Numbered from the stretch's first letter, positions 29,755-63,590 are shown. The stretch: DNA of 64,000 nucleotides from a virus (IMGVR_UViG_3300027863_001757:1412-65411); one strand, 5' to 3'. Numbers and translations: made by a program. Notes: generated from the sequence alone by a model not told the origin.

Positions 29755-32700
29755 TTAGTTCTTGTTGCCTGCGCTCTGGCCGACACGCTCCCGGTATGCG
29801 GCCATGAAGCCCGTCTTGAGCTTGTCTTCCAGGCTTGTATTCTTGTCATCCACATCGAGCGGACGTACGCCCGCATCCGTGCGAAGCTGGCGGTCGGCCT
29901 GTGAGGAGCCGGGCTTGTCCTTGTCTTTGCCTTTATCCTCGCCTTCGCCCTTTCCGTCGGTGTCGGATTTCGAGCATTCGGGCTTTGCCTGCACTGCTCT
30001 GTCGTAAGCGGCCTCGGTCGCGGTGAACGCATCGTCGGAAAGCTCCGAAAGGCGGCCCAGTTCCTTTTCACGCTCCTCGTCGGAAGCGAATGTCATCCCA
30101 GCCTTTTCAAGCTTCGCGACAAGTTTCGCGGCACGGGACTTGTTTGCGGCTGCCTTGCTTTCCGCCTCAAGCTCCTGAACCTGTTTTTGAAGCTCCAATA
30201 CCTGGTTCTTGAGGTCTTTGTTTTCCGTCTCAAGCTCCTTTATTCGGGCCTTGTCGTCTGCCGGTGTGCCGCCTCCGCCAGCAGGCGCGTTCTTCTTCGC
30301 AGCTTCTTCACGCTGCTCGTCTGTCTCATGCTCTTTCTTGTCGTCTTCCACTGAGCTGCCTCCTGTGTCTGTGGGGTTGGTTTGCCTTGCCTCCTGTGAG
30401 CCGACCTGCGTAATTCGCGCGTTTTCATCAGCGCCTTTGCGGTCCAGCAGTCCAAGGCCGGTAAATGTAACACCATGTAAAATCTCGAAGACCGGCTTGC
30501 CCTGATAATCGCCTCCCTTGTATTTGCGGAGGTGAATGCAGTAGTCGTTCTTCGACGTCATCGTCTTGCCGCAGATAGAGCACTCCCCAGCCTCGTAATC
30601 ACACTCCATCGAGACCTGGCTGATGATGCCGCGTTTCATGAGCTTGTAAGCAAGCGCGGCGGTAGGGGTATCTTTCACATACAGCTCGCCCACGCACTCG
30701 ACCCGGCCGCCAGTCTCATCCTCAACGAACTCAGCGCCCACGATCCCGCCGACGATGTCGGTGAGATCCTGAGAGTGCTTAAGGTCTATCTTCTTGTTGA
30801 TCGCCGTAGTGTACCGTGCCGCCAACTCGTCGGCTGCGAAGTGGTCGCCGTTCTTATTGGTCCCCGCACGGCACATAATGAAGCTGAACTGTGGGTCACC
30901 CGCGTTTGGGTTGATGTCTATAGCGTCGGCTGAGAGCTGTGTAGACCCGGCAATGCATACCTCGACCGGAATGGACGTGTGACAGTTAGCGGGCAGCGAG
31001 GCGGCCGCAGCACTGGGCGCACCGCTGGATTTTGAGGAGATGAAGAGCAGCTCGCGGCCGGTCTTGCCCTCGCTTCCTTTGCCGAGAACGATGTTGTACT
31101 CCACATCCATTCCCCTGACGCGAACGTTGCCGAGGCGCTGTGAGAAGATATCGCGGATCTCCTTTTCCGTAGGGAACGCCTTGTCGCGGTAGGACATGAG
31201 GACAGTCCCATACTTACCACGAGCCTCAGTCGCAAGGCTCTCGATGAGCGAGCGTATGCTGTCGCGATCATAGTGCGTGCGTGACTGATAGCTCCTGCGG
31301 TTGTCGTCGAGGAGCGTCTTATCGGCCCAGCGGTTCATAAGTCCCTCGACAAAGTGCAGGGAGTACTCATAGTCGTTGTTCGAGAACTGGGTGATGTACG
31401 GTGGGTCGAGGTAAAGCACATCCGCGCCGAACTTGCGCACGGCTTCCACAGCGTCACCGTGGAACGCCTTGCACTCCTGGCCGTTGTCGAATACCAGCTT
31501 ATTGAGCTGGGCCGCGTAGCGTTTGAAGCTCTCGACCATGCTGGAGACCGGCAGGTTCACAAGCTGGTTCTCTTTTACACCGGCGTCTGATTCCAGGTCA
31601 GCCTTGAGATTGAGTTTCGAGCGATGGAACTGACCATATAGGCTTTTGGCTTTCACCGTATTACCGAGCGCGGCAAGCGCAAGGTCTTTCTTGTAACCGG
31701 GCAGCTTCTGGATATTCGCCCACACTTGATCGAGCCACGCGAGCACTTTCTTGGTGTAGTAGTAGCCGTGGAAGTTGTCGACGACGAATGTGCCTGCGTT
31801 CGAGTTCGGCGCGAGGACCTTCTCGATATCCTCGTCAGTCAAGGTCTCGTGCGAGTTTTCAACGACGGCACGGGCGACGTGGTAGGGATAGAGCAGCAGG
31901 TCGTTGGCTATGACCTTCAGGCCCTTGCGCTTGAAATGATACGCTACATTCGCGCCGCCGGAGAACGCGTCGAGGAGGGTCTTCGCGTCCTTCGGAACCT
32001 GCCGCTCTATCCAGCCGAGCATCATGTATTTATTGCCCATGAAGCCCGTAACGCGGACTGGGTCCATTCCTGCCTGACAGGAGAGCAAGTCCACGTCATC
32101 CGCGAGAGGCGCGTCGGCCAGTGCCGCCATGTTCTCCTCGATGCGTAGCTCAGCCTTGGATGCCTCGGGCTCGTGCCGCTTCACCCAATCCTGGGCTTTC
32201 TCCATAGTCCAGCCGTCGGGATTCTTCTCGGTTCCTTCGTCTTTGCTTAGGACATGCTTCTTGGCAAAGCGATACGCCTGCAGGACCATCGCTTTCGGAT
32301 CATGGCCTTCGGGGACCAGCTCTTTCTTCAGCCTGCCGATAATAATTGCGATACCGTCAACGCCGTCAAGGTCTTTGCGCCTGAAGCTATCCGGCTCGAA
32401 CTGCTCGGGATCGCGTACGCGGTAGCGGATCTCGTTTTCGGTCTCGTCCCACTCGGCCTGCGCCTGCATTTGCGAGCATGCTGGACACAGCCCCGCCGAT
32501 TGTTTCAACTTGCCCGACCGAGAGCATACGAACAGGCGCTCAATGGCCTGCGAGTTCTCGGACTGTCGGGAAGATATGTAATAGCGGTGCTGCTGCGAAC
32601 TGATCCGGCTTTCCATGCCGTTTGCTGAGATGATGTCTTTCATCTCGGCTTCGTTCGGATAAGCATGGTCGCGGTACGATATGAGCCAATTCGGAATGTG

Positions 32701-33639
32701 CTTCGCGTTGGCAAGAAACGTCGTGAAGAACTCGCCGGCGTTAGCTTTGGTGACAGTCTTGTGGTCTGTCTCATAATGGTGAGTTTTTGAGTCTCCTACG
32801 AGTGTAAGGCCGTCCCAGTAGGTCATGAGACCTTCGGTGAAGTGGTAAGCCTTCTCATAGTTGGTCGTCGAGAATTCGGTCGCGTAGGGAGGATCAAAGT
32901 AGGCGAGATCGACCTTTGCGTCCGCCAGCACGTCGTTTACATCCTTGCAGATTGCCTTACACTCTTTGCCGTTATCGAAGATGAGCGCGTTGATACGCGC
33001 CACATTGTTTAGGAAGCGCTCTTTGAATTCGTCCGGCGTGTCCTGCCGCTTGCCGTATTCGGTCGAAGAGGAAAAGTGCCCGAAACCGCCCTTGCCTGCA
33101 AGACATGCCTTGCCGAGAGCAAAGAGCGCAATGTCCTTCTTGTAGCCAGAAAGCGCATCGATATTTGCCCGGATGTTGTCGATGATAGTGTGGACACCAT
33201 CGGCGAAAAAGAGGCCCTTGAAGTTGTCCCTAACGAATGTGCCGGCCTTAGGATTGTCGGCTATGAGCGCATCAAGTTCTTCCTGGCTGATCCGGACGGA
33301 GTTATTTTCAATGATAGCCCTGGCGATATGATAGCTGTAGTGGAGTCTGTCGTTGGCAATGACCTTGAGGCCCTTGGTCTTGTACATATACGCCACGACC
33401 GACGAGCCGGAGAACGCGTCGAGGATCGAGCTTATGTCTTCCGGCGTATGCTTCCATATCCAGTCGACAAGCTTCTGCTTTGAACCTATGTAGTTAGTGA
33501 TGTATTTCGGACGCTCATCCGGTGGCAGTTCTTCCGTAACAAGCTCCGCCGCCTGGGCGAGCAGGTCGTCCAGGTGACGTGAAGCGTCTGTCTCAAGAAG
33601 AAAAGCCAGCCGATCAAGATCCGTGGCAAAAAGCTGCAT
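29755..33639 (-). CDS. Fusion: two N6-adenine DNA methyltransferase domains + prohead protease + scaffold coiled coil
   Basis: MTase 1: NYIGSK...DAFSGS...DPPY (32884). MTase 2: FMGNK...DAFSGG...DPPY (31397). Then NKNGDHF...DLKH...VSMEC...CSICG...CIHL...GADENA protease-like domain and an acidic/coiled-coil scaffold. One uninterrupted 1294-codon frame. Confidence 0.88.
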   Translation of the reverse strand: MQLFATDLDRLAFLLETDASRHLDDLLAQAAELVTEELPPDERPKYITNYIGSKQKLVDWIWKHTPEDISSILDAFSGSSVVAYMYKTKGLKVIANDRLHYSYHIARAIIENNSVRISQEELDALIADNPKAGTFVRDNFKGLFFADGVHTIIDNIRANIDALSGYKKDIALFALGKACLAGKGGFGHFSSSTEYGKRQDTPDEFKERFLNNVARINALIFDNGKECKAICKDVNDVLADAKVDLAYFDPPYATEFSTTNYEKAYHFTEGLMTYWDGLTLVGDSKTHHYETDHKTVTKANAGEFFTTFLANAKHIPNWLISYRDHAYPNEAEMKDIISANGMESRISSQQHRYYISSRQSENSQAIERLFVCSRSGKLKQSAGLCPACSQMQAQAEWDETENEIRYRVRDPEQFEPDSFRRKDLDGVDGIAIIIGRLKKELVPEGHDPKAMVLQAYRFAKKHVLSKDEGTEKNPDGWTMEKAQDWVKRHEPEASKAELRIEENMAALADAPLADDVDLLSCQAGMDPVRVTGFMGNKYMMLGWIERQVPKDAKTLLDAFSGGANVAYHFKRKGLKVIANDLLLYPYHVARAVVENSHETLTDEDIEKVLAPNSNAGTFVVDNFHGYYYTKKVLAWLDQVWANIQKLPGYKKDLALAALGNTVKAKSLYGQFHRSKLNLKADLESDAGVKENQLVNLPVSSMVESFKRYAAQLNKLVFDNGQECKAFHGDAVEAVRKFGADVLYLDPPYITQFSNNDYEYSLHFVEGLMNRWADKTLLDDNRRSYQSRTHYDRDSIRSLIESLATEARGKYGTVLMSYRDKAFPTEKEIRDIFSQRLGNVRVRGMDVEYNIVLGKGSEGKTGRELLFISSKSSGAPSAAAASLPANCHTSIPVEVCIAGSTQLSADAIDINPNAGDPQFSFIMCRAGTNKNGDHFAADELAARYTTAINKKIDLKHSQDLTDIVGGIVGAEFVEDETGGRVECVGELYVKDTPTAALAYKLMKRGIISQVSMECDYEAGECSICGKTMTSKNDYCIHLRKYKGGDYQGKPVFEILHGVTFTGLGLLDRKGADENARITQVGSQEARQTNPTDTGGSSVEDDKKEHETDEQREEAAKKNAPAGGGGTPADDKARIKELETENKDLKNQVLELQKQVQELEAESKAAANKSRAAKLVAKLEKAGMTFASDEEREKELGRLSELSDDAFTATEAAYDRAVQAKPECSKSDTDGKGEGEDKGKDKDKPGSSQADRQLRTDAGVRPLDVDDKNTSLEDKLKTGFMAAYRERVGQSAGNKN

Positions 33640-33681
33640 GTATCACTCCGACACTGGGTGGGGCAAAACGAAAGGCCCCCT

Positions 33682-33718
33682 ACTTTGTTATTTACTACCG
33701 GAATCCACAAAGTGTCGG
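33682..33718 (-). promoter_or_regulatory. Conserved 37-bp promoter-like motif, copy 2 (upstream of MTase-protease/capsid/tail operon)
   Basis: CCGACACTT-N12-TAGTAAATAACAAAGT. Confidence 0.75.
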
Positions 33719-33855
33719 AATGATCTTTGAGCGCAGTCCCGTGCTGGGAGCTGTGATTGGAAAGGAGCCGTCTTGCTGGCTTTAGCGATTAGATGGTTTT
33801 CCGTATAATAAGCTCAGAGAATCACTGATAAAACTACACAGGAAGGCTAGAGACA

Positions 33856-34533
33856 ATGAACGCAGCAGAGCATATCGTACAATCGTTCTTCTGGGAAGCC
33901 GATAGCCCGACGAAGAAGCCGCGCGGGCGCAGATACCTTACGATCTCAAACGTGATCGGCGGCGGTAATCGGGAGGTGGACGTGCTCGCCATCTCCGGGG
34001 ACGGCGCGGACAGGATCCGCGTCGAATGTGAGATTGCGGTCAATTGGCCGTTCACTTGCGAGGGAATAGAGGACCGCATCCGCTACAAGATGATCAATGA
34101 CAAGCATTCACGCAAAGCGGTAGAGGACATATTCGGTACCGACGACTACCGCAAGGTCTTTGTCGTCTGGAGCAGTCCCTTTGCCGAAGAACGCAGCCTG
34201 CCTGAAGACCTTCTCATAGAGCAGTGCGAGATGTGGTCGATCCAGGATTTGCTCCGAGACCTGATGTTTAGCATCGGCACCGCCAACTATCAGGATGATG
34301 TGCTGCGGCTGATGTCGATGATGTCGAGCATGCTTTCCCCAAACGCCGCATTGCGCGAGCTTGGCTGCAGCCGTGTATCTGCCGATGTATGCCAGGTAAC
34401 TGCTGCGACCTGCATTGATGCAGTCGCTCAACTCGGCAGGAAAGTCGCGGCTGACTCGGGCCACAAAACGGTATCGGCTCGACACATAAGGACCGCGCTG
34501 AACCAGATAAGTGAGCTCTGCAGAAAATGCTGA
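33856..34533 (+). CDS. PD-(D/E)XK-like nuclease fold fused to C-terminal histone fold
   Basis: REVDVLAI...IRVECE restriction-nuclease-like core; C-terminus LRELGCSRVSAD...AQLGRKVAADSGHKTVSARHIRTAL matches the histone-fold RVS/RKT loops. TATAAT at 33804-33809 upstream. Confidence 0.65.
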   Translation: MNAAEHIVQSFFWEADSPTKKPRGRRYLTISNVIGGGNREVDVLAISGDGADRIRVECEIAVNWPFTCEGIEDRIRYKMINDKHSRKAVEDIFGTDDYRKVFVVWSSPFAEERSLPEDLLIEQCEMWSIQDLLRDLMFSIGTANYQDDVLRLMSMMSSMLSPNAALRELGCSRVSADVCQVTAATCIDAVAQLGRKVAADSGHKTVSARHIRTALNQISELCRKC

Positions 34534-34554
34534 TGCGGAATGGCATGATCTGTA

Positions 34555-34890
34555 CTACCTGCTTGTCATTTGCTGAAGGATCTGTTTCGCGCATTGTTCC
34601 GCTGTGGCGAACATGTCGGTTTCCACTATCTCCCCGCGCATCCCATTATACGGTGACATCGTTGCCTGGTGATATTCGAGAAAGCCCTCAGGCAGCGACT
34701 TGATGTCGTTTTCTACCAACCGATTGATGACCCAGTCGGCGTCTTCAGCGAACTCTTCGTTTCCCGGCAGGTATTCCATCACGATATCAAGCCCAGGCCC
34801 GGGTCCCTGGACCCACACGCCGATTGGCTCGTAGTGCGGATCGATTTCACGGTCACGAACAGCATGCTCTATCATATACCTAAGCCGCAT
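34555..34890 (-). CDS. Small acidic hypothetical protein (second gene after MuF; candidate immunity)
   Basis: Start moved to MRLRYMIEH; overlaps the preceding gene. Confidence 0.65.
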   Translation of the reverse strand: MRLRYMIEHAVRDREIDPHYEPIGVWVQGPGPGLDIVMEYLPGNEEFAEDADWVINRLVENDIKSLPEGFLEYHQATMSPYNGMRGEIVETDMFATAEQCAKQILQQMTSR

Positions 34891-35362
34891 CCCATTCCTC
34901 CGCGATCCGAGTGTGCTCTTCGAGGAGATCGGCGTCGATCTGCTCGAACACAGCCTTGTTTTCAGATTTATATAGCTGCCAGTCTTCCCAGTCGGCAACC
35001 ATCTCGACATCCTGCGTAGGAAACAGCAGCTCTACATGAAACTTACGCCCACGATCATCCATCAAGTCGATAAGATACCCATCCTCTTGGCTCCAATCCA
35101 CGACCTTGATTGTGTGAGCATACTGCCAGCCGTTGTTATAGCCGGCTGACTTGAACAGCAGCCAGAGATCGGTCTTGGTCACACTGCCTACAGCATCAAA
35201 GTGCGGGGCGACGCGGGTGATCATATAGCTGTCTATAAGGCCAAAGCCGAGTGGTTCATCATTGCCTTCTCGCATCTCCATCCAGGAACCCTTTGTGTTG
35301 AACTCGTCAAAGAGTCTCTGCAGCCTCGCCTTTTCGTTTGCGATGAAATCTCTCATGATCAT
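34880..35362 (-). CDS. Acidic hypothetical protein directly after MuF (candidate immunity)
   Basis: 160 aa; ATG overlaps the MuF stop codon. Confidence 0.7.
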   Translation of the reverse strand: MIMRDFIANEKARLQRLFDEFNTKGSWMEMREGNDEPLGFGLIDSYMITRVAPHFDAVGSVTKTDLWLLFKSAGYNNGWQYAHTIKVVDWSQEDGYLIDLMDDRGRKFHVELLFPTQDVEMVADWEDWQLYKSENKAVFEQIDADLLEEHTRIAEEWDAA

Positions 35363-38300
35363 CTGCCTACTATTAGCTCTTCAACCTTGCGACCATCGGG
35401 CAAAGTAGATATGCCATGTTTTTTGAAGACATCCAGCACCTTGCTCTTTTCGGCATTGCTATGCACCACAATGCTATCCAGATTATCCAGGAGCGTGATA
35501 GAGTGTTTGAATATGGTCTCGTTGCTGGAGTTGCGCGAGAAGCTTTTCCACGTTGCCGGGTCGCTTCCACGATTGCTCGATACATAGTCGTCCTTGACCT
35601 TGCCAAAGGCGTCGTGATTGTAACTCACCGCATCCATCCGCCGCAGGAGCCGTTTTTTGTAGTAGAGACCAACATCTGTTGAATAAGCAGTCGGCGATTT
35701 CTTAATGCGGGTGAATACGTAGCTTGCGCCGCCGCTGTTCATATCGGACTCAGGTGACATTCCACCTGGCATGACACCCGCTCTGAGTTTCTCGACAGTA
35801 CTTATCATAGCGCCATTATTCTCAATTACCGTATCAAGAAACTCGCTTATGCTCTCACCGTTCGTGAGATGATGATACAGGCTGTAGCCTTTCATCTGCT
35901 TTTCGATGTCGGCATCTGATATATCGAAGCGATACTGATGCCTGTAACCTCCGGCGATCTTCGCGTCTCTGAAACCAAGCTGATACTCACCGATGGGATC
36001 ATACCCCGGCATTCTAGTGATGTCGGAAACACCCAGACGCTTTTCCCAGAAACCGCGCATTGCCTGGATGCGTTCTGTCTTCGTTGCGTTGCGCCCGTCC
36101 AGACCGGAGATCATGCGAGCATAGTCAGGCTCACGGTCGGCTTTCGTGACATAAGCCTGCTTTGTAAGATACATAATCTCAGCATCTTCGGCGTCGGCTA
36201 TATTTGTTTTCAGGCCGAGCTTTTCAATGTTGCCGAGCGCCCTGTCCAGGCTCTTTGCATCCGGCCTCTCATCAATGATAATCTCGAGTTCTCCGCGCTG
36301 CGCATAGTGGTTCTTCTCTGACCACGGCCGATAGACCGCCCTGACACCATCACCGAAATCCACTTCATACTGCTCCCCATCATTCATAGACCTGCCTCGA
36401 AACATCGAGTTGTTACCAACAGACTCTTTCTCGAGGGAAAGCTCGCCCTTTGTAAGCGTCCGCTTCTCCATAAGAACCTTGGTCTTGCGGACTGCGAAAT
36501 CTACATCCTTACTCTCAACTTTCTTTGGCAGGCTTTTCCGAAGATATGTCTCGAATTTCCCGGCAACGGTTTTTCTTTCCCTGGCGGCTTCCTGTGTTCT
36601 TTCTATCCAGTCGACGTAGGCTGTCGCCATCTCGCGCACATCCGGATCGTCGGATCTGGCAAGTTTCTTCAGCGCAGGAAGATGCTTGTTCAGCTTATCT
36701 ACTTTGGACTTGTTGTAGTTGCCATCCTGCGAATGATAGTTTACGGTCTTCACTGCGAGAAGGATATCATCAGCGAACTCGTCCTCAGCAAGCGGCTCAC
36801 CGACTTTGACGACGCTTACCTGACGACTGGATTTCCTGAGTGCGGGTAGGATTTTGGCTTCAGATTCGGGCCGAAGCTTCATCTTTACAACAGTGCGGGT
36901 CTTGCCTTTCACTGTCTCCGTGAAAACGAGGGCGTTCTGATCTTCAATATCAAATTCGTCTATTGGCAGAGATTTGCCCTGCCAGCCGAGAATGCGAGCC
37001 TCCTCAATAATCTGCTCCTCGGCTTTACCGATACGGACTACTGTTTGCGCTTCTGCGATATCCTCGAACTTGTAACCTTTCTTGCCGAGGATATCGGAGT
37101 AGAATGACTCGAAATCACTGCGCATGTTGTGCTTACGGGCAAGGGCCAGGTCGTAGAATGCCTTTTTCTTCAGTTCGTCGCCAGCGAACCTGCCCTCGAC
37201 GTATGGACGGATCAGGGCGAGGTAATCATCATCAGATATCTTCTCCACCTCGCGGATGTAGCGCAGTGTGACCGATGGATCGACCGTCACCTTGCCCTGC
37301 TTTGCCGCTCTGAAGAGAGTGTTGTAGAACGGCTCGCTCTCGCCGCAGGCTCCGTTGGGGTGGTAGTCGATGGAGAGCTTGTCCGACCCGAGAAACTTGA
37401 AAAGCTGAGCCTTATCGATACCGCAGACCTTGCCGTCTTTGGCCCGAAGGAACTGCTTGGAGTGCCCATCATGGTTGCTGATCAGCCAGTCGATGACATG
37501 CTCGCGCTGAACTTGCGCGATATCATCCGACGAAAGCTCAGTAATGTCGAAGCTGGAGAAGTCGGACTTTGCCGCCAGCCCACCGCGCCACCTCTGAATG
37601 GAACCTGCTCGGCCGTTGAGCTGGATCGTTCTGACTTCCATTGCATCCGGATCTATGAGCCTGCCGATCTTGTAGGCGGCTTCTTCTCCATGCGCGATGA
37701 AATCGTCAGACGACTTGCCGACCGGCTTGAAAAGCCACTTGTCGCCATTCTCGTCGAGCCAGAACTCCTTCTCATGCGCCCCGCCGACTTTGGCCTTGCT
37801 GACGTACTTGAACTTTTCCGGCTTCCCCTTCTCAGCCCACGCCGCATCCGCAGCGTCGAACTCGGAGGTCTTCTTCGCAAATGTGTTCGGCGTCGCGACT
37901 GTGACAGGCTGTGGGCCGACCTGTGGCTCTGATGTGGGGACTGCCTTCGGCTGTGCTGCCTTGCCGGACTTGCCCAGGTGCTTTTCGGCCCACTTTGCAT
38001 GCTTCGCTTCGATGCTCGCCTGCGCGGTAGATACCTTTGCCGGGTCGGTCTCCGTGAACAGGGTAACTAACTCGTCTTTCGACGACCATTGCCAATGCTT
38101 GATCTTCGTCTGCTTTGCAAGGTCCTTCAATTCCCCGGACTTCATCGCCGAAACCTGCTGCTGGAACGTGAGCTTTTTGACCGCGATCTCTGTCGCATGC
38201 TCCTGAAGCACCGACGTCGGCAACCCCGAGTCCTTCGCAAGTTCCGCTTCGGCGGCTTTCACTGAGTCGAGGAACGAGGAATACTGTGATGGAGAAGACG

Positions 38301-39939
38301 GCATCACTATCTGTGATGTGGCGTCCTTGAGAGCTTGCTCTGCTTTCTTAAGCGCCTCCTGTTTTGCTGCGTCCAGAGCCTGCTGCTTGGCATTCTCAGC
38401 CATCTGCTGACCAGCGGACTTTTCCAGGGCTTTGACGAGCTGCTCCTTGTTCTTCAAGGGTGGAATGCCATGCTTTTGTTTCGCGGCCATCAGGGCCTTA
38501 CCGGCAAGACCGGAGTGATCCACACCCGGCTCAAGACCGTCCAGCATATCGATGACTTCGCTCTTGGTGAGGTTCAGCGACACGCCGTGCTGCTTGGCCA
38601 TATTCTTGAGCTGGACCATAGTAAGACCGGAGAGATCGGACTGAGGCGCGGCGTTCTTTGCGGCTTCCTCCAGGGCTTTCGCCTGTTTGAGCACCGCCTG
38701 CTTTTCGGCAAGGAGCTTCGCCAGTTCGTCTTTACTCCGCAGCGCCGCGATGTTGTATTGCTTGATCTTCGCCTGCAGCGCAGTTCCAGACAGATCGGCA
38801 TGATGGATTCCCGGTTCTGCCTGGTCGAGAAGTTTGATGAAGTCGGACTTGGTGCGGGCAACGGCGACGCCATTCTGTTTCGCCAGCGTCTGAAGCTGCT
38901 TCACGGTGAGCGTGGAAAGGTCGCCAATCTCGCCTGACTCGAACGCGCCCTTGAGCTTCTTCTCTTCTTCGATCTTCTGTTTTGCCTGAAGATCAATTGC
39001 CTGCGGAGGAAGAATGCATGCATTCTGACCAGGTGCAGCAGTAGCGCCAAGTTCTCCCCCACAGATAACCAGCGGCCAAGCCGGTAAAGACTGACACCGG
39101 CAGTTGGGATGCGCCGGGATGTTGGGGAATTTGTCAATGTCGAAGACCTTACCGTCCAGACCGCCGCAGACCGGGCACATCCGCTCGTCTTCCATCGCCA
39201 TCCATTCGAGCTTCTGCACGCCGACCTGCTGGTGAAACTTGATGCGGCCCTGGTTGTGAGCACGCAGGACTTCGGTGCGGGCGATCATCTCCATGCGATA
39301 CTGCGCTTTGGAGAACACCTTGCTTCCCGCATTGCGGAATGATTCCTTGTCCTCGACGACCTTGCCAAGATCGCGGACGATGTCATCAGCGCCTTTACCT
39401 GTAGCGATACCGGAGAGGATGGTGCGTTTGATGCCGTCTGAAAGCTCCCGATGCACATCGCCGGCAAGCACCATGTTGTAATTGGCCATGAAGTCGAGCG
39501 CGTCGGTATCTATAAGGGTGAAAACCGATGTGGTGAGCTTGTCAATTCCGTCCGGCGCAAGGTCACGGTAAAACGGCATCTGAGCAGCCGCGAACTCTCC
39601 GATGCCGTGATATACGCCGGATCGAAACGACGCGCGGGAAGCCTTGCGGAACATCAGGGTCTGGTCCCTCTTGAGCGTCTTCGTCACTTCGCCTATCTCC
39701 GCGTCCAGCTTCTCCAAACCCTTCACTGCGGCGAGCTTGTTATCGGGCAGCGAACCGAGGCTTTTATAGGCTAGGAGCGCCTTCCGCACCTGTTCCTGCG
39801 CGGTCTTCAGAGACAGCGTGAGTTCATGGGCAACCTGCTCGGAGTAGAGGTCACGGGCAAGAAGGCTCCTCTGCGTTGCTTCTCGGATCGCCTGAGCTTG
39901 AGAAGTGGTATCGGCGATTGCGCACATCGATGCGTGCAT
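35359..39939 (-). CDS. MuF/SPP1 gp7-type minor head protein with long C-terminal extension (HeH-like repeats, HipA/PI3K-like kinase, probable ART-like domain)
   Basis: IARTE...EDERMCPVCGGLDG...PAHPNCRC MuF core; repeats LT..QLK.LAKQ.G...TK.E.I..L; GGAHEK...WLFKP...DWLISNHDGHSKQF...GIDK kinase motifs. Start set at ATG 39939 after the portal stop. Confidence 0.85.
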   Translation of the reverse strand: MHASMCAIADTTSQAQAIREATQRSLLARDLYSEQVAHELTLSLKTAQEQVRKALLAYKSLGSLPDNKLAAVKGLEKLDAEIGEVTKTLKRDQTLMFRKASRASFRSGVYHGIGEFAAAQMPFYRDLAPDGIDKLTTSVFTLIDTDALDFMANYNMVLAGDVHRELSDGIKRTILSGIATGKGADDIVRDLGKVVEDKESFRNAGSKVFSKAQYRMEMIARTEVLRAHNQGRIKFHQQVGVQKLEWMAMEDERMCPVCGGLDGKVFDIDKFPNIPAHPNCRCQSLPAWPLVICGGELGATAAPGQNACILPPQAIDLQAKQKIEEEKKLKGAFESGEIGDLSTLTVKQLQTLAKQNGVAVARTKSDFIKLLDQAEPGIHHADLSGTALQAKIKQYNIAALRSKDELAKLLAEKQAVLKQAKALEEAAKNAAPQSDLSGLTMVQLKNMAKQHGVSLNLTKSEVIDMLDGLEPGVDHSGLAGKALMAAKQKHGIPPLKNKEQLVKALEKSAGQQMAENAKQQALDAAKQEALKKAEQALKDATSQIVMPSSPSQYSSFLDSVKAAEAELAKDSGLPTSVLQEHATEIAVKKLTFQQQVSAMKSGELKDLAKQTKIKHWQWSSKDELVTLFTETDPAKVSTAQASIEAKHAKWAEKHLGKSGKAAQPKAVPTSEPQVGPQPVTVATPNTFAKKTSEFDAADAAWAEKGKPEKFKYVSKAKVGGAHEKEFWLDENGDKWLFKPVGKSSDDFIAHGEEAAYKIGRLIDPDAMEVRTIQLNGRAGSIQRWRGGLAAKSDFSSFDITELSSDDIAQVQREHVIDWLISNHDGHSKQFLRAKDGKVCGIDKAQLFKFLGSDKLSIDYHPNGACGESEPFYNTLFRAAKQGKVTVDPSVTLRYIREVEKISDDDYLALIRPYVEGRFAGDELKKKAFYDLALARKHNMRSDFESFYSDILGKKGYKFEDIAEAQTVVRIGKAEEQIIEEARILGWQGKSLPIDEFDIEDQNALVFTETVKGKTRTVVKMKLRPESEAKILPALRKSSRQVSVVKVGEPLAEDEFADDILLAVKTVNYHSQDGNYNKSKVDKLNKHLPALKKLARSDDPDVREMATAYVDWIERTQEAARERKTVAGKFETYLRKSLPKKVESKDVDFAVRKTKVLMEKRTLTKGELSLEKESVGNNSMFRGRSMNDGEQYEVDFGDGVRAVYRPWSEKNHYAQRGELEIIIDERPDAKSLDRALGNIEKLGLKTNIADAEDAEIMYLTKQAYVTKADREPDYARMISGLDGRNATKTERIQAMRGFWEKRLGVSDITRMPGYDPIGEYQLGFRDAKIAGGYRHQYRFDISDADIEKQMKGYSLYHHLTNGESISEFLDTVIENNGAMISTVEKLRAGVMPGGMSPESDMNSGGASYVFTRIKKSPTAYSTDVGLYYKKRLLRRMDAVSYNHDAFGKVKDDYVSSNRGSDPATWKSFSRNSSNETIFKHSITLLDNLDSIVVHSNAEKSKVLDVFKKHGISTLPDGRKVEELIVGR

Positions 39940-39949
39940 TATCTTTGCC

Positions 39950-41542
39950 TCAACCTCTCTTGCGTCCGAAGAAGCGGCAAGTCGGGGAATCGAAAGTCGT
40001 CTCTGCCTGCGTGACTCCACAGCGGTTGTGCTCCTCGCCAAAATAGCCACAAGAGTCGCACATCTCGCCGACACCGGCGCTGGAGTATAGGGCTGCCTGC
40101 GATTGTCCGTCCGGGCGATTCTTTGCCGGATCGAGGCCGAGCATCTGCTGCGCGCTTTCGATACTCATTATTCCTGCCACGACCATATCCACAATGGGCT
40201 TGACTTGCTTTTCGTCGAGGAGATCGACTGACTTGTCCTCATGCTGCCGGTTGGCCGTTTCAGTATCCGGGTCGAGGTCCATTTTGAGCTGCAGAGACGA
40301 CCGACTTATGAGCTTGCGGTCGTATAACTCGATGAGGAGCTTCTTGAAATCGACGGCGTCTGTGGGATCGAGGTCGTTGAAGACGAACTGGACACTCTTT
40401 CCCTGGTGTCCCGCAATCTCAAGCCAGTCGCTGTATATCCAGTCGAGGATGGTGCGCGCGGCATGCTTTATCTCCCGGATCATGATGAGCATCTTCTGCA
40501 TCGACACTGATGCTGTCGCGAAGTTGGGGCCATCGCCGGCAACCAGAGACCGCGAGAGGCCGAGCGCAACGACTATGTCTTCCTTTACATCCTTGACTTT
40601 GTCCTCAGTGTTGAGAACCTGTCCCTCAGTGCCGTGAGTTTCGACGGTCACATAGAAAGGCACGACGAGGCCGCTCTTCATGTCCATCTTGTTGACCATG
40701 TCGCGAGTCTGTTCTAGCATCTTCTGGTCAGGCATCACCATCTTCTGGCCGAACGCGCCGCCGACCTTAATCAGCCTGAATGGCGTGGCCCAGCGTTTGG
40801 CAATCGCCTTCTCCGCGCGGCGATAGTCACGAAGTAACTCAATGGAGTCGAATGCTGGGAGGACAAGCGAGTTACCGCGAGGAGAGAACGCTGGCGCATC
40901 CCACTTGAGATGCAGAGTCTGTTCGACGGGCAACTTCAACCCGTCACCGACGGTCGGGCTGTCTTCTGGGAACTGCTGTACCTCTACAAGCTGTCCCTGG
41001 GCATATTTCACCTTGATGGATACCGGGTTTACACAAGTGACTTCCTCAAAGTCCTTGCCGTCTTTGGTATATCGTTTGAATCCGACTGCGTCACCCTTTA
41101 CGAGAAGTTGCAGGATCATATCTTTCACGAACTCAGAGATACCGAGCCTGTCGGACAGATCGTTTGCCTCCTGCTTTACGGTCTCATCGTCGCTTGTTAT
41201 CCTTATCTCATCGCCCACGGCAAATGTTCGCCAGGAGTTGACACAGTTCTTGACCAGAGGCTCCTCGACATAGTACTCCCAGGCTTTTTTCGCGCGCTCT
41301 TCCCAGGTCTTTGGAATAGCGCAGTGATCGGGATTGATGTGGGCAAACACAGCCGAATCCAGCATGGCCGCTGTCGCCATGGGAGATATGACTATGCCTT
41401 GTGCCTGTGTATCGTGTTCGTCGGGTATGGCTGCCTGGCTGGAATGTTTTCTTGAGCGTGACTTTCGACTGCAGTTTTCCACATTGACCTCTATGCGCAA
41501 TTCTGTCGCACCTGCATAGCGCGCCAGGAGGCACACATCCAC
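39950..41542 (-). CDS. Portal protein
   Basis: Located between terminase and MuF; YYVEEPLVKNCVN...LLVKGDAV...PRGNSL..PA...IVVALG pattern. Start uncertain (41542 or GTG 41483). Confidence 0.8.
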   Translation of the reverse strand: MDVCLLARYAGATELRIEVNVENCSRKSRSRKHSSQAAIPDEHDTQAQGIVISPMATAAMLDSAVFAHINPDHCAIPKTWEERAKKAWEYYVEEPLVKNCVNSWRTFAVGDEIRITSDDETVKQEANDLSDRLGISEFVKDMILQLLVKGDAVGFKRYTKDGKDFEEVTCVNPVSIKVKYAQGQLVEVQQFPEDSPTVGDGLKLPVEQTLHLKWDAPAFSPRGNSLVLPAFDSIELLRDYRRAEKAIAKRWATPFRLIKVGGAFGQKMVMPDQKMLEQTRDMVNKMDMKSGLVVPFYVTVETHGTEGQVLNTEDKVKDVKEDIVVALGLSRSLVAGDGPNFATASVSMQKMLIMIREIKHAARTILDWIYSDWLEIAGHQGKSVQFVFNDLDPTDAVDFKKLLIELYDRKLISRSSLQLKMDLDPDTETANRQHEDKSVDLLDEKQVKPIVDMVVAGIMSIESAQQMLGLDPAKNRPDGQSQAALYSSAGVGEMCDSCGYFGEEHNRCGVTQAETTFDSPTCRFFGRKRG

Positions 41543-42424: not shown

Positions 42425-43951
42425 TCAAAAGAAGACTGGATCAGTCAGCACCGGGATGACGCAAACAGTCTCCTCGGTGATCTGATCCAGACTTCTCTGC
42501 TCTCGGACCAACATCGCGCAGCGCACGGCGTCGATGATGTGGTCGTTACCCTTGGAGTAGATCACGTTGCCGTTCGAGAGTGTGTAGGTATGCGTCGTAA
42601 GCTGGTCTTCTATCTCAAGATCATCGGCAGGCAATGCCATCTGCCTGCGCTGCAGCGCGCCGTTGATGAGGCTGGTCATCAGCTCCTTGGTGCGCTTCTT
42701 CACGTCCTGACCGTCGCGAACTGCGAGTGTGGTCATGCCACCGAAGTCGTATCCGTATAGTCTGCCTTCAAGCTGGATCTGCCTGTATTTGTCGAGCGTG
42801 AGCAGCTCCTGCACGACCGCCAGACCATTGCCGCCGTTGTCCACGCCTATGCCGACCGGCGTGAAGTACTTCTCCAGCAGAGAAATCGTCTGAGCTATGT
42901 GAGGGTAAGAGATGTGCTCCATGTGGATTCGCAGCACAAGCTTCAGAATAGAGCGCTCCCCGACCTCTATCTCCTGGAACACGACAATCTCGGTCGGATC
43001 GTTAGTGTAGCCAAGGTCGCCGCCTATCCAGAACATGCCGGTCTGGGGCATCAGGTTCAGAAGCATCTCCAGTCGGTCGTATGACTCCTCTTCTGTCGCA
43101 CAGTCGCGCATGTCCTCGCCACATATCGCAACCTTTAGGTACTCCGGCATCTCCTGGCGACAGAGATTCAGGTGCTCGATATTGAACGCACCATAGGAAG
43201 GCTTTCCGTGTTCGCCGGCGACTTCATGCTGCCAGCCTGCGGTGTCGTGCCCACCGTAGAACTCAAGAAGCTCGCGTTCGCGCTCCTCATTCCAGTCCGG
43301 GTTAATCCACGACGGCCACCTGAATACCCTGAACTGTGATGACATTGTCAGGCGGTAATAGGTGGTGTTCCGCAGGCCGTTGGGTGTGGAGTAGATGCGC
43401 AAGCGCCCCCCTGCCTTCAGGCACTGCCGAAGAGCCTTCCATGCCTTCTCCGTAAGCCACGCACCTTCATCGACCCACACACGCTCGACATGCAGCGACC
43501 TGAACGCGTCGCCGTAGACCCCAGCCGGTCGGAAGTAGAGCACCGCGCCGTTGGTGAACTCCAGCCTGAAGTAAGGCTTGCGGATTATCTTGGGCTTACC
43601 AAACTTTGTAAGGGCGACGCTCCTCATCAGTTCATCGTTGGATTCCAGTTGGAACTCTATCTCCTCGATCAGGGTGTCGAGGTGTCCCTGGTGCGGAGCA
43701 GCGATAAGTCCTTGGCCGCCGCGTGTGGTGAAGGCGAAGTGCATCGCATCTGTCGTGAGCACGCAACTCTTCCCGCAATCACGACCGTCGAGATGAATGA
43801 TATTACGCATCTCACACTTCAGGTCGTCAATCTGGTGCGGCCAATAGCCACGCGCGGAACCATCCCGATTGCGCAGATACTTCTCTCCCCACAACACCGG
43901 GTCCCTGAGCGACATCCCCAATCTTTCTTCTTCCGACGTTATCTCAACCAC
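42425..43951 (-). CDS. terL: Terminase large subunit
   Basis: GRDCGKS Walker A, RVWVDEG Walker B, YSTPNG motif III, GGDLG and DHIIDA RNase H-like nuclease motifs; GTG start behind GGAGGA. Confidence 0.9.
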   Translation of the reverse strand: MVEITSEEERLGMSLRDPVLWGEKYLRNRDGSARGYWPHQIDDLKCEMRNIIHLDGRDCGKSCVLTTDAMHFAFTTRGGQGLIAAPHQGHLDTLIEEIEFQLESNDELMRSVALTKFGKPKIIRKPYFRLEFTNGAVLYFRPAGVYGDAFRSLHVERVWVDEGAWLTEKAWKALRQCLKAGGRLRIYSTPNGLRNTTYYRLTMSSQFRVFRWPSWINPDWNEERERELLEFYGGHDTAGWQHEVAGEHGKPSYGAFNIEHLNLCRQEMPEYLKVAICGEDMRDCATEEESYDRLEMLLNLMPQTGMFWIGGDLGYTNDPTEIVVFQEIEVGERSILKLVLRIHMEHISYPHIAQTISLLEKYFTPVGIGVDNGGNGLAVVQELLTLDKYRQIQLEGRLYGYDFGGMTTLAVRDGQDVKKRTKELMTSLINGALQRRQMALPADDLEIEDQLTTHTYTLSNGNVIYSKGNDHIIDAVRCAMLVREQRSLDQITEETVCVIPVLTDPVFF

Positions 43952-44058
43952 GATTATTCCTCCGCATTTCCTTGCACATTCGAGGCAAGAACCCTTGACT
44001 TCACACGCGGTCCGAGTGATCAATGTGAACAACATACACAACCACTGGAGGTAGTGAA

Positions 44059-44454
44059 ATGACAGACAAGACACTGCACGAGGCTATTGAGGAACACATC
44101 GAGCACCTCAAGAGCCAGGGCAAGAGCGAGCGCACAATCTATACATACTCCAAGGACTTCGAGCAGGTCGAGGCATTCTTCAAGCCGGACAGGAAACTTC
44201 GCTCGATCCTCATCCCACACGTCGGGAGCTTCCTCAAGTCGGATACGCTCCTCAAAATGCGCGGCGACAAGGATCGGTCGGAGATCACGGTCAAGAAGAC
44301 CATCCGTGTCTTTCGCACGTTCCTTGTGTGGGCGAAGGAACAGGGCTACATCGACAAGCTCCCGCTGCCCAAGGACGTTCCGACAGGCCGCAGCCTCAAA
44401 GCACAACCGGAGGTGACCAGTGCCGAACCCGATCCGGATGCTGCAGCCGAGTAA
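44059..44454 (+). CDS. Stand-alone integrase N-terminal SAM-like (core-binding) domain protein
   Basis: AIEEHIEHLKSQGKSERTIYTYSKDF...FLVWAKEQGYI; no catalytic domain. Confidence 0.75.
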   Translation: MTDKTLHEAIEEHIEHLKSQGKSERTIYTYSKDFEQVEAFFKPDRKLRSILIPHVGSFLKSDTLLKMRGDKDRSEITVKKTIRVFRTFLVWAKEQGYIDKLPLPKDVPTGRSLKAQPEVTSAEPDPDAAAE

Positions 44455-45337
44455 CGATCTCGAACACGCGATAGACAACTTCGCGGTAAGGCTCCGGGCG
44501 CAAGGTCGCTCGGAGCTTACCATCTCCGCCTATACGCGTGACCTACGCTGCTTCGCCCGCGCACTGCCGGGCATAGATACTCATGACATCACACCAGCGA
44601 TGGTAGATGCGGCGATTACTGATCCCACGGTCACCTGTTCTGAGAACTGCGTGCCAAAATCGACTGCGACGATGTATCGGCTGAAGGCCGCTGTAAAATC
44701 GTTCTTCTCCTGGTGCGAAGAGAGCGGACTGACAAGCGGCAATCCTGCCAGATCGGTAAAGATGAAACGCCTCTCTCGGAAGCCTCCGAAATTCCTGAGC
44801 GAACCAGAGAAGCGCAGGCTCCTCAAGGAAGTCCGCGACCGTACAAGTCCACTTGCCCGCCGCGACCGGGTCATCTTCGAACTCTTCCTCGGGACCGGCA
44901 TACGCATAGCGGAACTTGTGAATCTCGACATCGATGACGTCGATCTCGACGGCAAGCACATATACATCACAGGCAAGGGTGGCATTCCACAGGCCAAATT
45001 CCTCAACTCATCCCTGCGGACACTTCTGCGCAGCTATCTCAAAGAGCGCCGACGCCTGGCAGATACCGAGGTTACCGCGCTATTCGTCTCGTCTCAAGGA
45101 ACGAGACTCTGCTGCAGGCAAATCGCCAAGCGACTTACCTACTGGCTCGCCAAGGCTGGAATCCAGAAGAACATCACGCCGCACGGACTGCGACATACGT
45201 TCGCGACGCACCTCTACACCGCCACCTCCGATCTGCTGCTCGTTAAGCGCGCCCTCATTCACCGCGACGTCTCCACCACTGAAATCTACACCCACGTTGC
45301 AGACGAACAACTTGAGGATGCACTGGAACGCATCTGA
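44420..45337 (+). CDS. XerC/XerD-like tyrosine recombinase
   Basis: RDRVIFELFLGTGIRIAEL, GKGG, TPHGLRHTFATHL, IH..VSTTEIYTH: R-K-H-R-H-Y catalytic set present. Confidence 0.92.
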   Translation: MPNPIRMLQPSNDLEHAIDNFAVRLRAQGRSELTISAYTRDLRCFARALPGIDTHDITPAMVDAAITDPTVTCSENCVPKSTATMYRLKAAVKSFFSWCEESGLTSGNPARSVKMKRLSRKPPKFLSEPEKRRLLKEVRDRTSPLARRDRVIFELFLGTGIRIAELVNLDIDDVDLDGKHIYITGKGGIPQAKFLNSSLRTLLRSYLKERRRLADTEVTALFVSSQGTRLCCRQIAKRLTYWLAKAGIQKNITPHGLRHTFATHLYTATSDLLLVKRALIHRDVSTTEIYTHVADEQLEDALERI

Positions 45338-61027: not shown

Positions 61028-61261
61028 ATGGCCCTCGGAAACTTACCGCGAGGTGGAAACATGCAAAGCCGGACTTATTCCCAGCAGATCACCATGCCCG
61101 AACGGATATCTGAGGCTGCCGGAATACTGGCCGCCGGAATCATGCGCGCAAAACGCAGGCAGGCCAGGGGCACCCGCTCGTTCTCTGAAAAGAGACTTGA
61201 CTCTTCGGCGAATTCGAGCGTTCATTCATCTAACTCGAGTGCGAGAGGTGAGAAACTATGA
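61028..61261 (+). CDS. Small hypothetical protein of DUF2924-recombinase modules
   Basis: RISEAAGILAAGIMRAKRR pattern; ATGA overlap with the next gene. Start may be 61061. Confidence 0.55.
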   Translation: MALGNLPRGGNMQSRTYSQQITMPERISEAAGILAAGIMRAKRRQARGTRSFSEKRLDSSANSSVHSSNSSARGEKL

Positions 61262-61668
61262 GCGCCTCACGCGAAGGTCTGAACCCTGAGTTTGCGGCAA
61301 AACTTACGCTCTTTGAAAAGAAACTCGCCGCAAACGGCATCAAGGTAATGCTCACCTGTGGTTACAGGTCCATTGAAGAACAGAATCGCCTTTACGACCA
61401 GGGCCGGACCAAGCCCGGTAAGAAGGTAACCAACGCCCGCGGAGGTTACAGTTGGCACAACTGGGGGCTTGCTGCGGATTATGTGTTTATCATCAATGGC
61501 AAGGTCACGTGGGACGGCCCATGGGCGACGTTCGGCAAGATAGCGCGTGAGTCCGGCCTTGAGTGGGGCGGCGACTTTAAGAGCATAGTCGACCGGCCGC
61601 ACGTGCAGTGGACACAGGGAAAGACTCTCGCACAGATGCGCCGAGCTGCCGCTGCTAAGAAGAAGTAA
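61258..61668 (+). CDS. M15-family peptidase endolysin (L-Ala-D-Glu peptidase-like)
   Basis: GYRSIEEQNRLYDQGRT.PG..VTNARGGYSWHNWGLAAD...DRPHVQ. Confidence 0.92.
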   Translation: MSASREGLNPEFAAKLTLFEKKLAANGIKVMLTCGYRSIEEQNRLYDQGRTKPGKKVTNARGGYSWHNWGLAADYVFIINGKVTWDGPWATFGKIARESGLEWGGDFKSIVDRPHVQWTQGKTLAQMRRAAAAKKK

Positions 61669-61716
61669 CGCAGCCGGATGGAATCTGCCTGTCGCACTCA
61701 GACTGAGGAAGTGAGA

Positions 61717-62202
61717 ATGAAAGACTCTGTTTTACGGCAGATCGCGGATCTGCAAAACCTGTCCTATGATGAACTCAAGGGGCGATGGGCAATGCTTTAT
61801 GGCGGCGCACCGCCCGCCTACAACAGAACGTTCATCATAAAACGGTTGGCGCACCGAATACAGGAGCTTGCCTACGGCAGTCTGTCGGAGGCAACGCAGG
61901 CAAAGATGCGAGAGGTACTCGATACCTATGGCTTCGACGAAAACGGTTGCGACCGCACCACAAGACAAACCCAGCGAAAGAAGAGGCGCAGGCAGGATAT
62001 GCCGGTATCGGGGACCCGGCTTGTTCGCAACTGGAACGGCAGACGCTATGAGGTGATAGTAGTCCCCGGCGGCTTTGAGTATGAAGGAAAGAAATACCGG
62101 TCGCTGACAGCGGTTACCAAGGCCATAACAGGCTCCCATTGGAACGGCCGGGCCTTTTTTGGCTTCAGAAACGACACGGCCAAAAAAGGAGTCGAAGTAT
62201 GA
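61717..62202 (+). CDS. DUF2924-family protein
   Basis: RLAHRIQELAYG.L...GTRLVRNWNG...V...GFEYEGKKYRSLTAV..AITG.HWNG..FFG. Confidence 0.9.
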   Translation: MKDSVLRQIADLQNLSYDELKGRWAMLYGGAPPAYNRTFIIKRLAHRIQELAYGSLSEATQAKMREVLDTYGFDENGCDRTTRQTQRKKRRRQDMPVSGTRLVRNWNGRRYEVIVVPGGFEYEGKKYRSLTAVTKAITGSHWNGRAFFGFRNDTAKKGVEV

Positions 62203-63590
62203 GAAAGGCATCAATCAGCGCGCCCTGCATCCGCTGCGCGATCTATACACGCAAGAGTACTGACGAGGGTCTGGAACAGGAGTTCAACAGCCTTGACGCC
62301 CAACGTGAGGCATGCGAGGCATACGCCGTAAGCCAGCGTCATGAGGGCTGGATCGTTATTCCAACGATGTACGACGATGGCGGTTTCACCGGGGCGAATA
62401 TGGAGCGTCCGGCCCTGCGGAGGCTGATGAGCGACATCGAAGCCGGTATGGTCGACCTTGTGCTTGTGTACAAGGTCGACCGACTCTCTCGTTCACTCTT
62501 GGACTTCACTAAGCTCATCGAGGTTTTCGACCAGCGCGGCGTATCATTCGTCTCAATCACCCAGAGCTTTAACACCAGCACAGCGATGGGAAAGCTGGTC
62601 TTGAACATTTTGCTGTCGTTCGCCGAGTTTGAGCGCGCCATAATAGCCGAGAGAGTCCGCGACAAGATAGCCGGAGCCAAACGAAAAGGCAAGTTCACAG
62701 GCGGCACCCCAGTGCTCGGCTATGATGTGAATTCGGAAACGCATAAGCTGGTAGTAAACCCGCACGAAGCAAAGATAGTGCGGAACATCTTCAAGCGGTT
62801 CGCGGAAATAGGCTCCGGGCAGACCATCGCGAAAGAACTCAACGCGAAAGGTATTACCACCAAGTCGTGGACGACAAGAAAAAGCAAGTTCAGACCCGGC
62901 AAAGCCTGGGACGGCCCAGCCATCTACAGGATAATCGCAAACCCTGTCTACATCGGTCAGATAAAGCACAAGGAGAAGATATATCCCGGCGAGCATGAAG
63001 CAATAGTAACACAGGCTCTTTGGGACAGAGCGCATGCGATGATCCAACACGACGGCAGAGTCGGAAGCAGGGTCTCCGAGAAAGTCCCCGCGCTCTTGAA
63101 GGGGATTATCCGGTGCGGTCACTGCGATCATTCGATGTACCCCACATACACCAGACGCAAGGGCAAGACCTACCGCTATTACCTCTGCGTCAAAGCCTCA
63201 AAAGCCGGTTACGACACATGTCCCGTGAAGACAGTCGCTGCAGGGGAGATAGAGGATGCCGTAATAGGTCAGCTCAAGACGATATTCAGGTCGCCTGAGA
63301 TGATAGCGCAGACGTACTTCGCAACACAGGAGCTGATACTCGAAGAGCAGGCCGATGAGCGGATGTCCGCCGATGTAGCCGTAACAGAAGCCGAAGTAGC
63401 CGAGGCCCTGCGGCAGATCGGCGGAGTATGGGAGGAACTCTTTCCCGCCGAGAGGTCGCGCATAGTCCGGACTTTAGTCGAACAGGTAAGTGTTTACGAG
63501 AACGACCTCGACGTGCGCATTCGCACAGGCGGAATTCACTCGATAATATCAGAGATGAAAAAGCCGGAGGAAGAGGAATGTCTGGCATAA
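62199..63590 (+). CDS. Large serine recombinase (integrase)
   Basis: CAIYTRKS...Q...YDDGGFTG...RPAL..L...VYKVDRLSRS; recombinase domain; CGHC...YYLC zinc ribbon. Confidence 0.95.
   Translation: MRKASISAPCIRCAIYTRKSTDEGLEQEFNSLDAQREACEAYAVSQRHEGWIVIPTMYDDGGFTGANMERPALRRLMSDIEAGMVDLVLVYKVDRLSRSLLDFTKLIEVFDQRGVSFVSITQSFNTSTAMGKLVLNILLSFAEFERAIIAERVRDKIAGAKRKGKFTGGTPVLGYDVNSETHKLVVNPHEAKIVRNIFKRFAEIGSGQTIAKELNAKGITTKSWTTRKSKFRPGKAWDGPAIYRIIANPVYIGQIKHKEKIYPGEHEAIVTQALWDRAHAMIQHDGRVGSRVSEKVPALLKGIIRCGHCDHSMYPTYTRRKGKTYRYYLCVKASKAGYDTCPVKTVAAGEIEDAVIGQLKTIFRSPEMIAQTYFATQELILEEQADERMSADVAVTEAEVAEALRQIGGVWEELFPAERSRIVRTLVEQVSVYENDLDVRIRTGGIHSIISEMKKPEEEECLA

Follow-up and report, generated by a model that had tools for sequence, protein, structure and literature searches.

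A viral gene in the stretch of DNA analysed here (64,000 nucleotides, hereafter the window) encodes a 225-aa protein, P0001, with an unusual two-domain architecture. Its first ~159 residues have, according to the structural models, a PD-(D/E)XK restriction-endonuclease fold, and residues ~160-225 a histone fold, an assignment that we consider secure since sequence profiles and predicted structures agree on it. The pairing seems previously unreported, both in the DNA-binding partner domain that it gives to a PD-(D/E)XK nuclease and in the enzymatic context in which it places a histone fold. The gene is cargo in a slot where related phages exchange different cassettes, several of them carrying known defence systems. 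We tentatively read P0001 as a prophage-borne, single-gene defence nuclease that would use its histone fold for DNA binding and dimerisation.

The P0001 gene and its insertion slot

The P0001 coding sequence (33856..34533, + strand, stop codon included) is a real gene under strong purifying selection: protein searches found 12 full-length homologues with 30-93% identity, and Nei-Gojobori comparisons with the copies in loci L005, L006 and L007 gave dN/dS values of 0.05-0.09, with synonymous sites saturated. The window makes up most of a 65.4-kb IMG/VR record of class provirus, which encodes near its right end a large serine recombinase together with a DUF2924 protein (61678-63590, +); a temperate lifestyle is therefore likely. 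A second recombinase of the element, of the tyrosine type, lies between the terminase genes (44420-45337, +), and a VanY/M15 peptidase is encoded at 61258-61668. P0001 is the sole + strand gene of a head module otherwise encoded on the - strand, including the large terminase (42425-44074, -), the portal (39950-41542, -) and a MuF-like polyvalent protein of 1571 aa (35359-40074, -). Two small ORFs, orf151 and orf160 (34555-35362, -), separate it from the MuF-like gene, and its other neighbour encodes a 1294-aa methyltransferase-protease with two D12-class adenine methyltransferase domains (29755-33639, -).

Both neighbours deserve a comment of their own. In the 1294-aa protein, a protease/scaffold-like part is fused to the double D12 methyltransferase; the protein is not unique, having relatives in at least 79 IMG/VR loci (43-83% identity), and relatives of ~790 aa suggest the existence of versions with one methyltransferase domain. 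The two small ORFs, for which no Pfam or PHROG family was found, are kept in most relatives (35-82% identity). Since the orf151 homologues, as called in L005 and L006, measure only 105-118 aa, the 131-nt overlap between orf151 and orf160 is probably an artefact of choosing the longest ORF.

The neighbouring 1294-aa protein served to collect 79 related IMG/VR loci, 51 of which retain both flanks of the slot. From the orf151 homologue to the methyltransferase-protease, the spacer measures 82-336 bp in 42 of these 51 loci and 1.3-5.4 kb in the other nine, none of the 51 carrying P0001 there; in the window it comprises 916 bp, occupied by P0001 and the sequence upstream of it. In blastn comparisons with L016, L008 and other 'empty-site' relatives, homology ends near 33654 and restarts near 34588, which delimits an inserted cassette (33655..34588) consisting of the promoter region and P0001 and lacking a counterpart in those relatives. 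An earlier reading of this DNA, made from the sequence only, had taken the gene for an insertion into the head module, antisense to it, and the cassette limits and the unique orientation of the gene bear this out.

The cargo found in the slot of the relatives is diverse: AbiEi/AbiEii in L017 (7881-10001), L018 (7298-9366) and also L009; a type IIG restriction-methylase together with an AbiEi-like gene in L019 (4610-10001); a pPIWI-associated nuclease-like protein in L074 (6589-7953); a P-type cation ATPase with an EIIA protein in L036 (5823-10001); and unknown proteins of 472 aa (L077) and 514 aa (L085). PADLOC models for AbiE, type IIG restriction-modification (RM) and Aga nuclease match this cargo. 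Metagenome contigs likewise show joints at 33575-33731 and 34622, enclosing 813, 4328 or 5509 other letters. Because many different cassettes thus lie between shared boundaries, both in the relatives and in metagenome contigs, the slot is a cargo-exchange hot spot enriched for defence genes, in agreement with the cargo status that the earlier reading had proposed for P0001. The insert of 5509 letters was found on a related phage contig from a hot-spring run (X1), the probable source of the window, so that alternative cargo alleles co-exist in one community.

Upstream of the gene, a promoter-like element can be read from the sequence (33781..33809, +), composed of a -35 hexamer TTTAGC (33781-33786), a 17-nt spacer and a -10 hexamer TATAAT (33804-33809), followed by a Shine-Dalgarno-like AGGAAGG (33840..33846, +) 9 nt before the ATG. 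The perfect TATAAT, already pointed out in the sequence-only reading, ends a 14-bp block, GTTTTCCGTATAAT (33796-33809), that is identical at 14 of 14 positions in the homologous locus L005 amid an otherwise diverged spacer, which supports the promoter. A consensus promoter scan made no call at 33804-33809 owing to the weak -35 hexamer, and within the window the 14-mer does not recur beyond chance. We found no intrinsic terminator after P0001, nor any between it and the late head operon; transcripts would consequently run antisense into that operon. Low-depth contigs ~90% identical over the gene occur in a run labelled RNA-Seq (X20), which is flagged as probably DNA and is unusable as expression evidence.

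The nuclease-histone fusion is rare, being common to only ~13 protein clusters. The gene occupies the same slot, in the same orientation, only in the window and in two metagenome contigs: L005, from a biogas fermenter (78% identity), and L006 (82%), where two extra ORFs lie beside it; a further copy, ~93% identical, occurs in run X4. The three phage copies in the slot, 78-82% identical, have diverged about as much as the flanking genes (74-83%), and the GC3 of P0001 matches that of the phage. A family profile retrieved no copy from IMG/VR beyond the window's own record, and no further copy was found among GTDB species representatives or, by tblastn, among INPHARED phages.

Other homologues have diverse settings. 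One, 52% identical, lies between nuoK and nuoL (L002 10001-10708; L003 2271-2978), co-oriented with them and abutting nuoL; the best relatives of the accompanying NuoL are ~50% identical and scattered over many phyla, which indicates a poorly sampled host lineage. The L007 homologue is upstream of rpsO-pnp, and that of L090 adjoins a weak HEPN-like gene. Two settings are defence-island-like: P0011 belongs to an island of an Armatimonadota MAG (L001) with UvrD, PDDEXK_1, AAA_5, NERD and REase-ARP genes nearby, and P0013 (L088), 30-33% identical to P0001, is flanked by a type I RM system on one side and by Mrr, Fic and SLFN genes on the other. No conserved partner, immunity or regulator gene was detected beside the homologues, suggesting that the protein acts alone or with host factors.

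The two domains of P0001

Separate fold searches with the two halves of the protein, a check proposed together with the sequence-only reading, led to nuclease folds for the first and to histone folds for the second. The AlphaFold2 (AF2) model, built from 13 sequences, has a mean pLDDT of 84. The N-terminal domain (residues 1-159; 33856..34332, +) is predicted to consist of an alpha helix, three strands, two helices, a strand, a helix, a strand and a final helix, an order that fits the alpha-beta-beta-beta-alpha-beta core of the PD-(D/E)XK superfamily. Its best structural match with VIA-align was AF1548 (1Y88; Z 11.1, rmsd 2.8 Å over 116 residues), followed at Z ~8 by the FokI cleavage domain, Cdn1, XisH, Card1 and NucS; many restriction, CRISPR-ancillary and repair nucleases reached Z 6-8.5. 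Foldseek searches of the PDB were led by AF1548, NucS/EndoMS, Bax1, HindIII, Can2, Card1 and R2 endonuclease domains (E-values 2e-4 to 1e-3), and those ESM Atlas neighbours that have names belong to NERD or Mrr_cat clusters. The nuclease-like core anticipated for this part of the protein is therefore supported by structural comparisons. No Pfam, NCBIfam, PHROG or PADLOC model matched it significantly; the only Pfam traces, below threshold, were PDDEXK_11 (E 0.16) and, in one relative, Mrr_cat or UPF0102 (E ~0.02). The defence models of PADLOC-DB 2.0 returned nothing at E up to 1 for P0001 and seven relatives, and a literature search on AF1548 found nothing relevant.

An exhaustive HMMER search gathered 27 cluster representatives of the N-terminal domain, only 21-30% identical to the window protein and mostly 150-180 aa long, with the domain alone or with other C-terminal extensions. 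Across the alignment of these 27 proteins, which together with the AF2 model and the Foldseek and VIA matches defines the domain, only E57 and D147 are invariant, and N32, D42, L44, A45, V103 and R151 are near-invariant. D42, which opens strand 2, and E57, within strand 3, occupy the canonical metal-ligand positions. The motifs quoted in the sequence-only reading are all present (E40-V-D42 and V56-E57-C-E59 here; R173-V-S175 and G-H203-K-T205-V in the second domain). Its remark that Glu replaces the motif lysine holds for the window protein, in which the position two residues after E57 is Glu59, but does not describe a family feature: five close homologues have His, the position varies across the wider family and a conserved K never occurs there. 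Catalysis is thus not assured, as the canonical (D/E)xK lysine is absent and its position varies. Replacement or migration of this lysine occurs elsewhere in the PD-(D/E)XK superfamily (BamHI, BglII), and the missing positive charge could, from the alignment, come from K78 or R151. K78, in the helix after strand 3, is mostly conserved, and R151 and D147 are also conserved outside the canonical motif. A conserved helix, Y-Q-D-D-[IV]-L-R, closes the domain, whose pI is 4.8.

The last strand and helices of this domain (residues 124-158; 34225-34329) matched the first half of the TAF6 histone fold marginally in profile searches (E 0.05-0.15), and pLDDT falls to 53-60 across them despite high sequence conservation. 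We considered a second, partial histone fold at this place but did not adopt it, since in the structural alignment these residues correspond to the strand and helix that end AF1548.

The C-terminal domain (residues 160-225; 34333..34530, +) was identified by sequence profiles, AF2, Foldseek and VIA. Its predicted elements are alpha1 (162-168), L1 with R173-V-S, alpha2 (176-200), L2 with K204-T205 and alpha3 (208-223). Folded alone, it gave a pLDDT of 91.8, with one short, one long and one 17-residue helix joined in this order by two loops, alpha3 measuring 16-17 residues in the AF2 models; these models thus contain the helix-loop-helix-loop-helix arrangement with a long central alpha2 that a histone fold demands. 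A profile of 13 full-length proteins, searched against PDB sequences, matched histone-fold proteins over positions 165-220 (HMk 1F1E, E 4e-4; HPhA, Asgard HHoB, HMfB and H4). With a profile of the C-terminal 68 residues from eight homologues, E-values were 8.9e-5 for 1F1E, 3.6e-3 for HHoB and 0.028 for HMfB, and the 47 PDB matches were nearly all histones, NC2-beta and viral histone doublets. Taken singly, six of eight sequences matched PF00808 (CBFD_NFYB_HMF; best E 0.0023), all of them under the gathering score, the window protein with 12.9-15.4 bits for a cut-off of 21.4. The homology to histones seen in these profiles is thus remote but consistent.

Structure comparisons gave the same picture. 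The best 50 Foldseek matches were all histones (probability 0.85-0.98, E 0.04 or more, TM 0.44-0.51), and in a VIA scan of 48,161 chains, which does not rely on Foldseek, histone-fold proteins took places 1-32 (Z 5-6.4), with 62-68 of the 68 residues aligned at an rmsd of 3.7-5 Å, such modest single scores being expected for a helical domain of 68 residues. The C-terminal histone fold proposed from the sequence is accordingly upheld by profiles and prediction alike. Given the rmsd of 4-5 Å to real histone monomers, the domain might also take a collapsed or self-closed form. We found no stand-alone small histone scoring as related to it in a set of 5.8 billion proteins, in which E-values miss remote histones.

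The conserved residues of the histone part are R167, R173 (in most members), V174-S175, K204, T205 (invariant) and H210, so that both DNA-contact loop motifs, R173-V-S175 in L1 and K204-T205 in L2, are present. In the RxTxxxxD clamp, the Arg position is variable (H/R/K/Y/S) and the Asp is replaced by an invariant H210; in P0001, H203 and H210 occupy the positions of the archaeal R...D pair, as had been noted from the sequence. The distance from RVS to KT, counted there as 30 residues versus 33, agrees with HMMER alignments to HPhA and HMk, in which the alpha2/L2 region of P0001 is short by 3 residues. With a pI of 9.1, the domain is basic. All 12 closer fusion proteins share C171 (34366-34368), C186 (34411-34413) and H210 (34483-34485) without exception, both cysteines being lacking in the outlier P0013; these residues might form a metal site or a disulfide that spans the L1/L2 junction in a dimer.

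Possible functions of P0001

From the architecture and setting of P0001, we infer a possible mode of action covering its activity, dimerisation, target discrimination and phenotype. The gene is prophage cargo (a 'moron'), and its product would be a self-contained DNA endonuclease, expressed from its own promoter and most likely directed at foreign DNA entering the cell, for instance that of superinfecting phages. The histone folds of two chains would pair in the usual handshake, and the dimer would grip ~30 bp of DNA with little sequence preference, thereby placing two catalytic domains on it; both might be needed, much as in the case of the FokI cleavage domains. The enzyme would be active with K78 or R151 in the role of the motif lysine. 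Cutting would be limited by some property of the target, such as its modification state, its shape or the fact that no host proteins are bound to it, and the phage's own several methyltransferases may shield its genome.

A defence nuclease is suggested by D42 and E57 at metal-binding positions, with D147 as a family-specific invariant residue, and by the slot itself, which holds AbiE, type IIG RM and the pPIWI-associated nuclease in relatives. The promoter-like block, the lysogeny genes and the defence-island settings of distant relatives point in the same direction. Several observations argue against it: two homologues reside in housekeeping settings (nuoK|nuoL and upstream of rpsO-pnp), the slot of L036 holds non-defence cargo (P-type ATPase and EIIA), PADLOC gives no match and the motif lysine is absent. 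Moreover, joined to a DNA binder without specificity, an uncontrolled nuclease would be toxic, and the gene has no conserved immunity or regulator partner at its side. The R-D clamp of classical histones is replaced as well, and the monomer model fits real histones only at 3.7-5 Å, so that the open handshake form is no more than presumed. It is mainly the housekeeping-operon copies and the missing lysine that keep our confidence in the defence nuclease somewhat below even.

A bolder version of the defence nuclease, which we regard as rather doubtful, would make P0001 the first of a new type of single-gene immune nuclease whose histone-fold dimer, as sensor and clamp, would respond not to a sequence but to the physical condition of incoming DNA (naked, bent or unmodified) and license the two PD-(D/E)XK domains to cut.

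P0001 might instead be a free-standing homing endonuclease or a similar selfish nuclease gene that would spread through cleavage of cognate 'empty' sites in the genomes of relatives, with the histone fold as its DNA-binding module. PD-(D/E)XK homing endonucleases do exist (I-Ssp6803I), and P0001 is a solitary gene with no conserved partner, sporadic in its presence (none of the 51 IMG/VR relatives in the slot, only the window, L005 and L006) and located between conserved genes in unrelated settings (nuoK|nuoL, upstream of rpsO). However, the slot swaps many unrelated cassettes, for which general hot-spot recombination suffices, and the similar divergence of gene and flanks, together with the phage-like GC3, speaks for long co-residence rather than recent invasion. 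In addition, histone folds usually bind without sequence specificity, a poor fit for a homing enzyme. We consider this explanation improbable.

Just as improbable, in our estimation, is a non-catalytic DNA-binding or chromatin-type protein in which the nuclease fold would serve as a binding or oligomerisation module, acting as a nucleoid factor or regulator, for example by silencing the late operon that P0001 faces. The absent motif lysine, the co-orientation of chromosomal copies inside housekeeping operons, the label 'histone H3/H4' that one homologue (P0009) received in the automatic JGI annotation and a transcription that converges on the late head operon with no terminator found between would all suit such a protein. 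Yet, in a family with only 21-30% identity, conservation is highest at D42, E57 and D147, a pattern that is typical for active sites, and relatives without any histone fold are common.

A phage life-cycle enzyme, that is, a structure-specific nuclease for recombination, junction resolution or host-DNA degradation, is the least probable of these explanations: the structural matches include PD-(D/E)XK enzymes for repair or with structure specificity (NucS, Hjc and Bax1 types), but the gene is absent from 42 of the 51 related phages sharing the module and so cannot be essential, its orientation is opposite to that of its neighbours, it has its own promoter and a PDDEXK_1 nuclease is already encoded in the replication region of the window. 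Finally, we rejected a dedicated RM pair with the adjacent double methyltransferase, since the methyltransferase-protease is present in the 51 relatives with both flanks, none of which has P0001 in the slot.

Significance and comparison with known systems

It is only recently that the histone fold has been recognised in bacteria and phages. A nuclease using this fold as a DNA handle would widen its known uses in prokaryotes, and if the dimer indeed acted as a sensor of incoming DNA, bacterial and phage histone folds would have been recruited for immunity and not for chromatin alone. As its slot otherwise hosts AbiE and restriction systems, P0001 is a short candidate for a new one-gene defence system, and its N-terminal domain defines a nuclease family for which Pfam, NCBIfam and PADLOC have no model. 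The histone fusions listed in the surveys PMC11390915, PMC13260811 and bioRxiv 10.1101/2024.12.06.627149 involve zinc fingers, GTPases and helical tails, and a nuclease is not among them. Our literature search found no paper describing a histone fold combined with an endonuclease domain.

Archaeal nucleosomal histones (HMfB 1A7W, HPhA 1KU5, HMk 1F1E, HHoB 9QV5) are the best matches of the C-terminal domain in both sequence and structure. They share with it the three helices with a long alpha2, the R-V-S of L1 and (R/K)-K-T-V of L2, a full-length alpha3 and a basic residue that closes alpha1. Whereas they are free proteins of 65-70 aa, the domain described here is the C-terminal part of a 225-aa enzyme-like protein in a bacterial host, with alpha2/L2 shorter by 3 residues, the R...D clamp changed into a variable residue and H210, all Pfam scores under the gathering threshold, and C171 and C186 invariant in the closer homologues.

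The sequence-only reading had compared the domain with bacterial histones of the Bd0055 type. In these, alpha3 is reduced to 3-4 residues and alpha2 is 4-5 residues shorter than in nucleosomal histones (PMC11390915). Alpha3-truncated bacterial histones (Bd0055/HBb 'bacterial dimers', ZZ histones and the 'phage histones' of Schwab et al. 2024, PMC11390915) do resemble the P0001 domain in their bacterial or phage occurrence, occasional fusion and shortened alpha2. Nevertheless, the alpha3 of P0001, with 16-17 residues, is not truncated, its best sequence matches are archaeal (HMk, HHoB, HMfB, HPhA) and no protein titled Bd0055 or HBb appeared among the matches listed in the PDB profile, Foldseek and VIA searches; the assignment to this bacterial type has therefore to be abandoned.

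As for the N-terminal domain, AF1548 (1Y88), Mrr/NERD/NucS-like nucleases and the FokI cleavage domain have a similar core fold, with D and E on strands 2 and 3. It differs from them in lacking the motif lysine and in having an extra conserved C-terminal helix with D147, and its similarity to FokI, NucS, Card1 and Can2 lies at Z 7.5-8.5. Regarding genomic context, the closest parallels are the prophage defence 'morons' found in the same slot, such as AbiE and RM cassettes: P0001 is a single gene that matches no catalogued defence system, but it resembles them in its insertion site, its own promoter and its sporadic presence.
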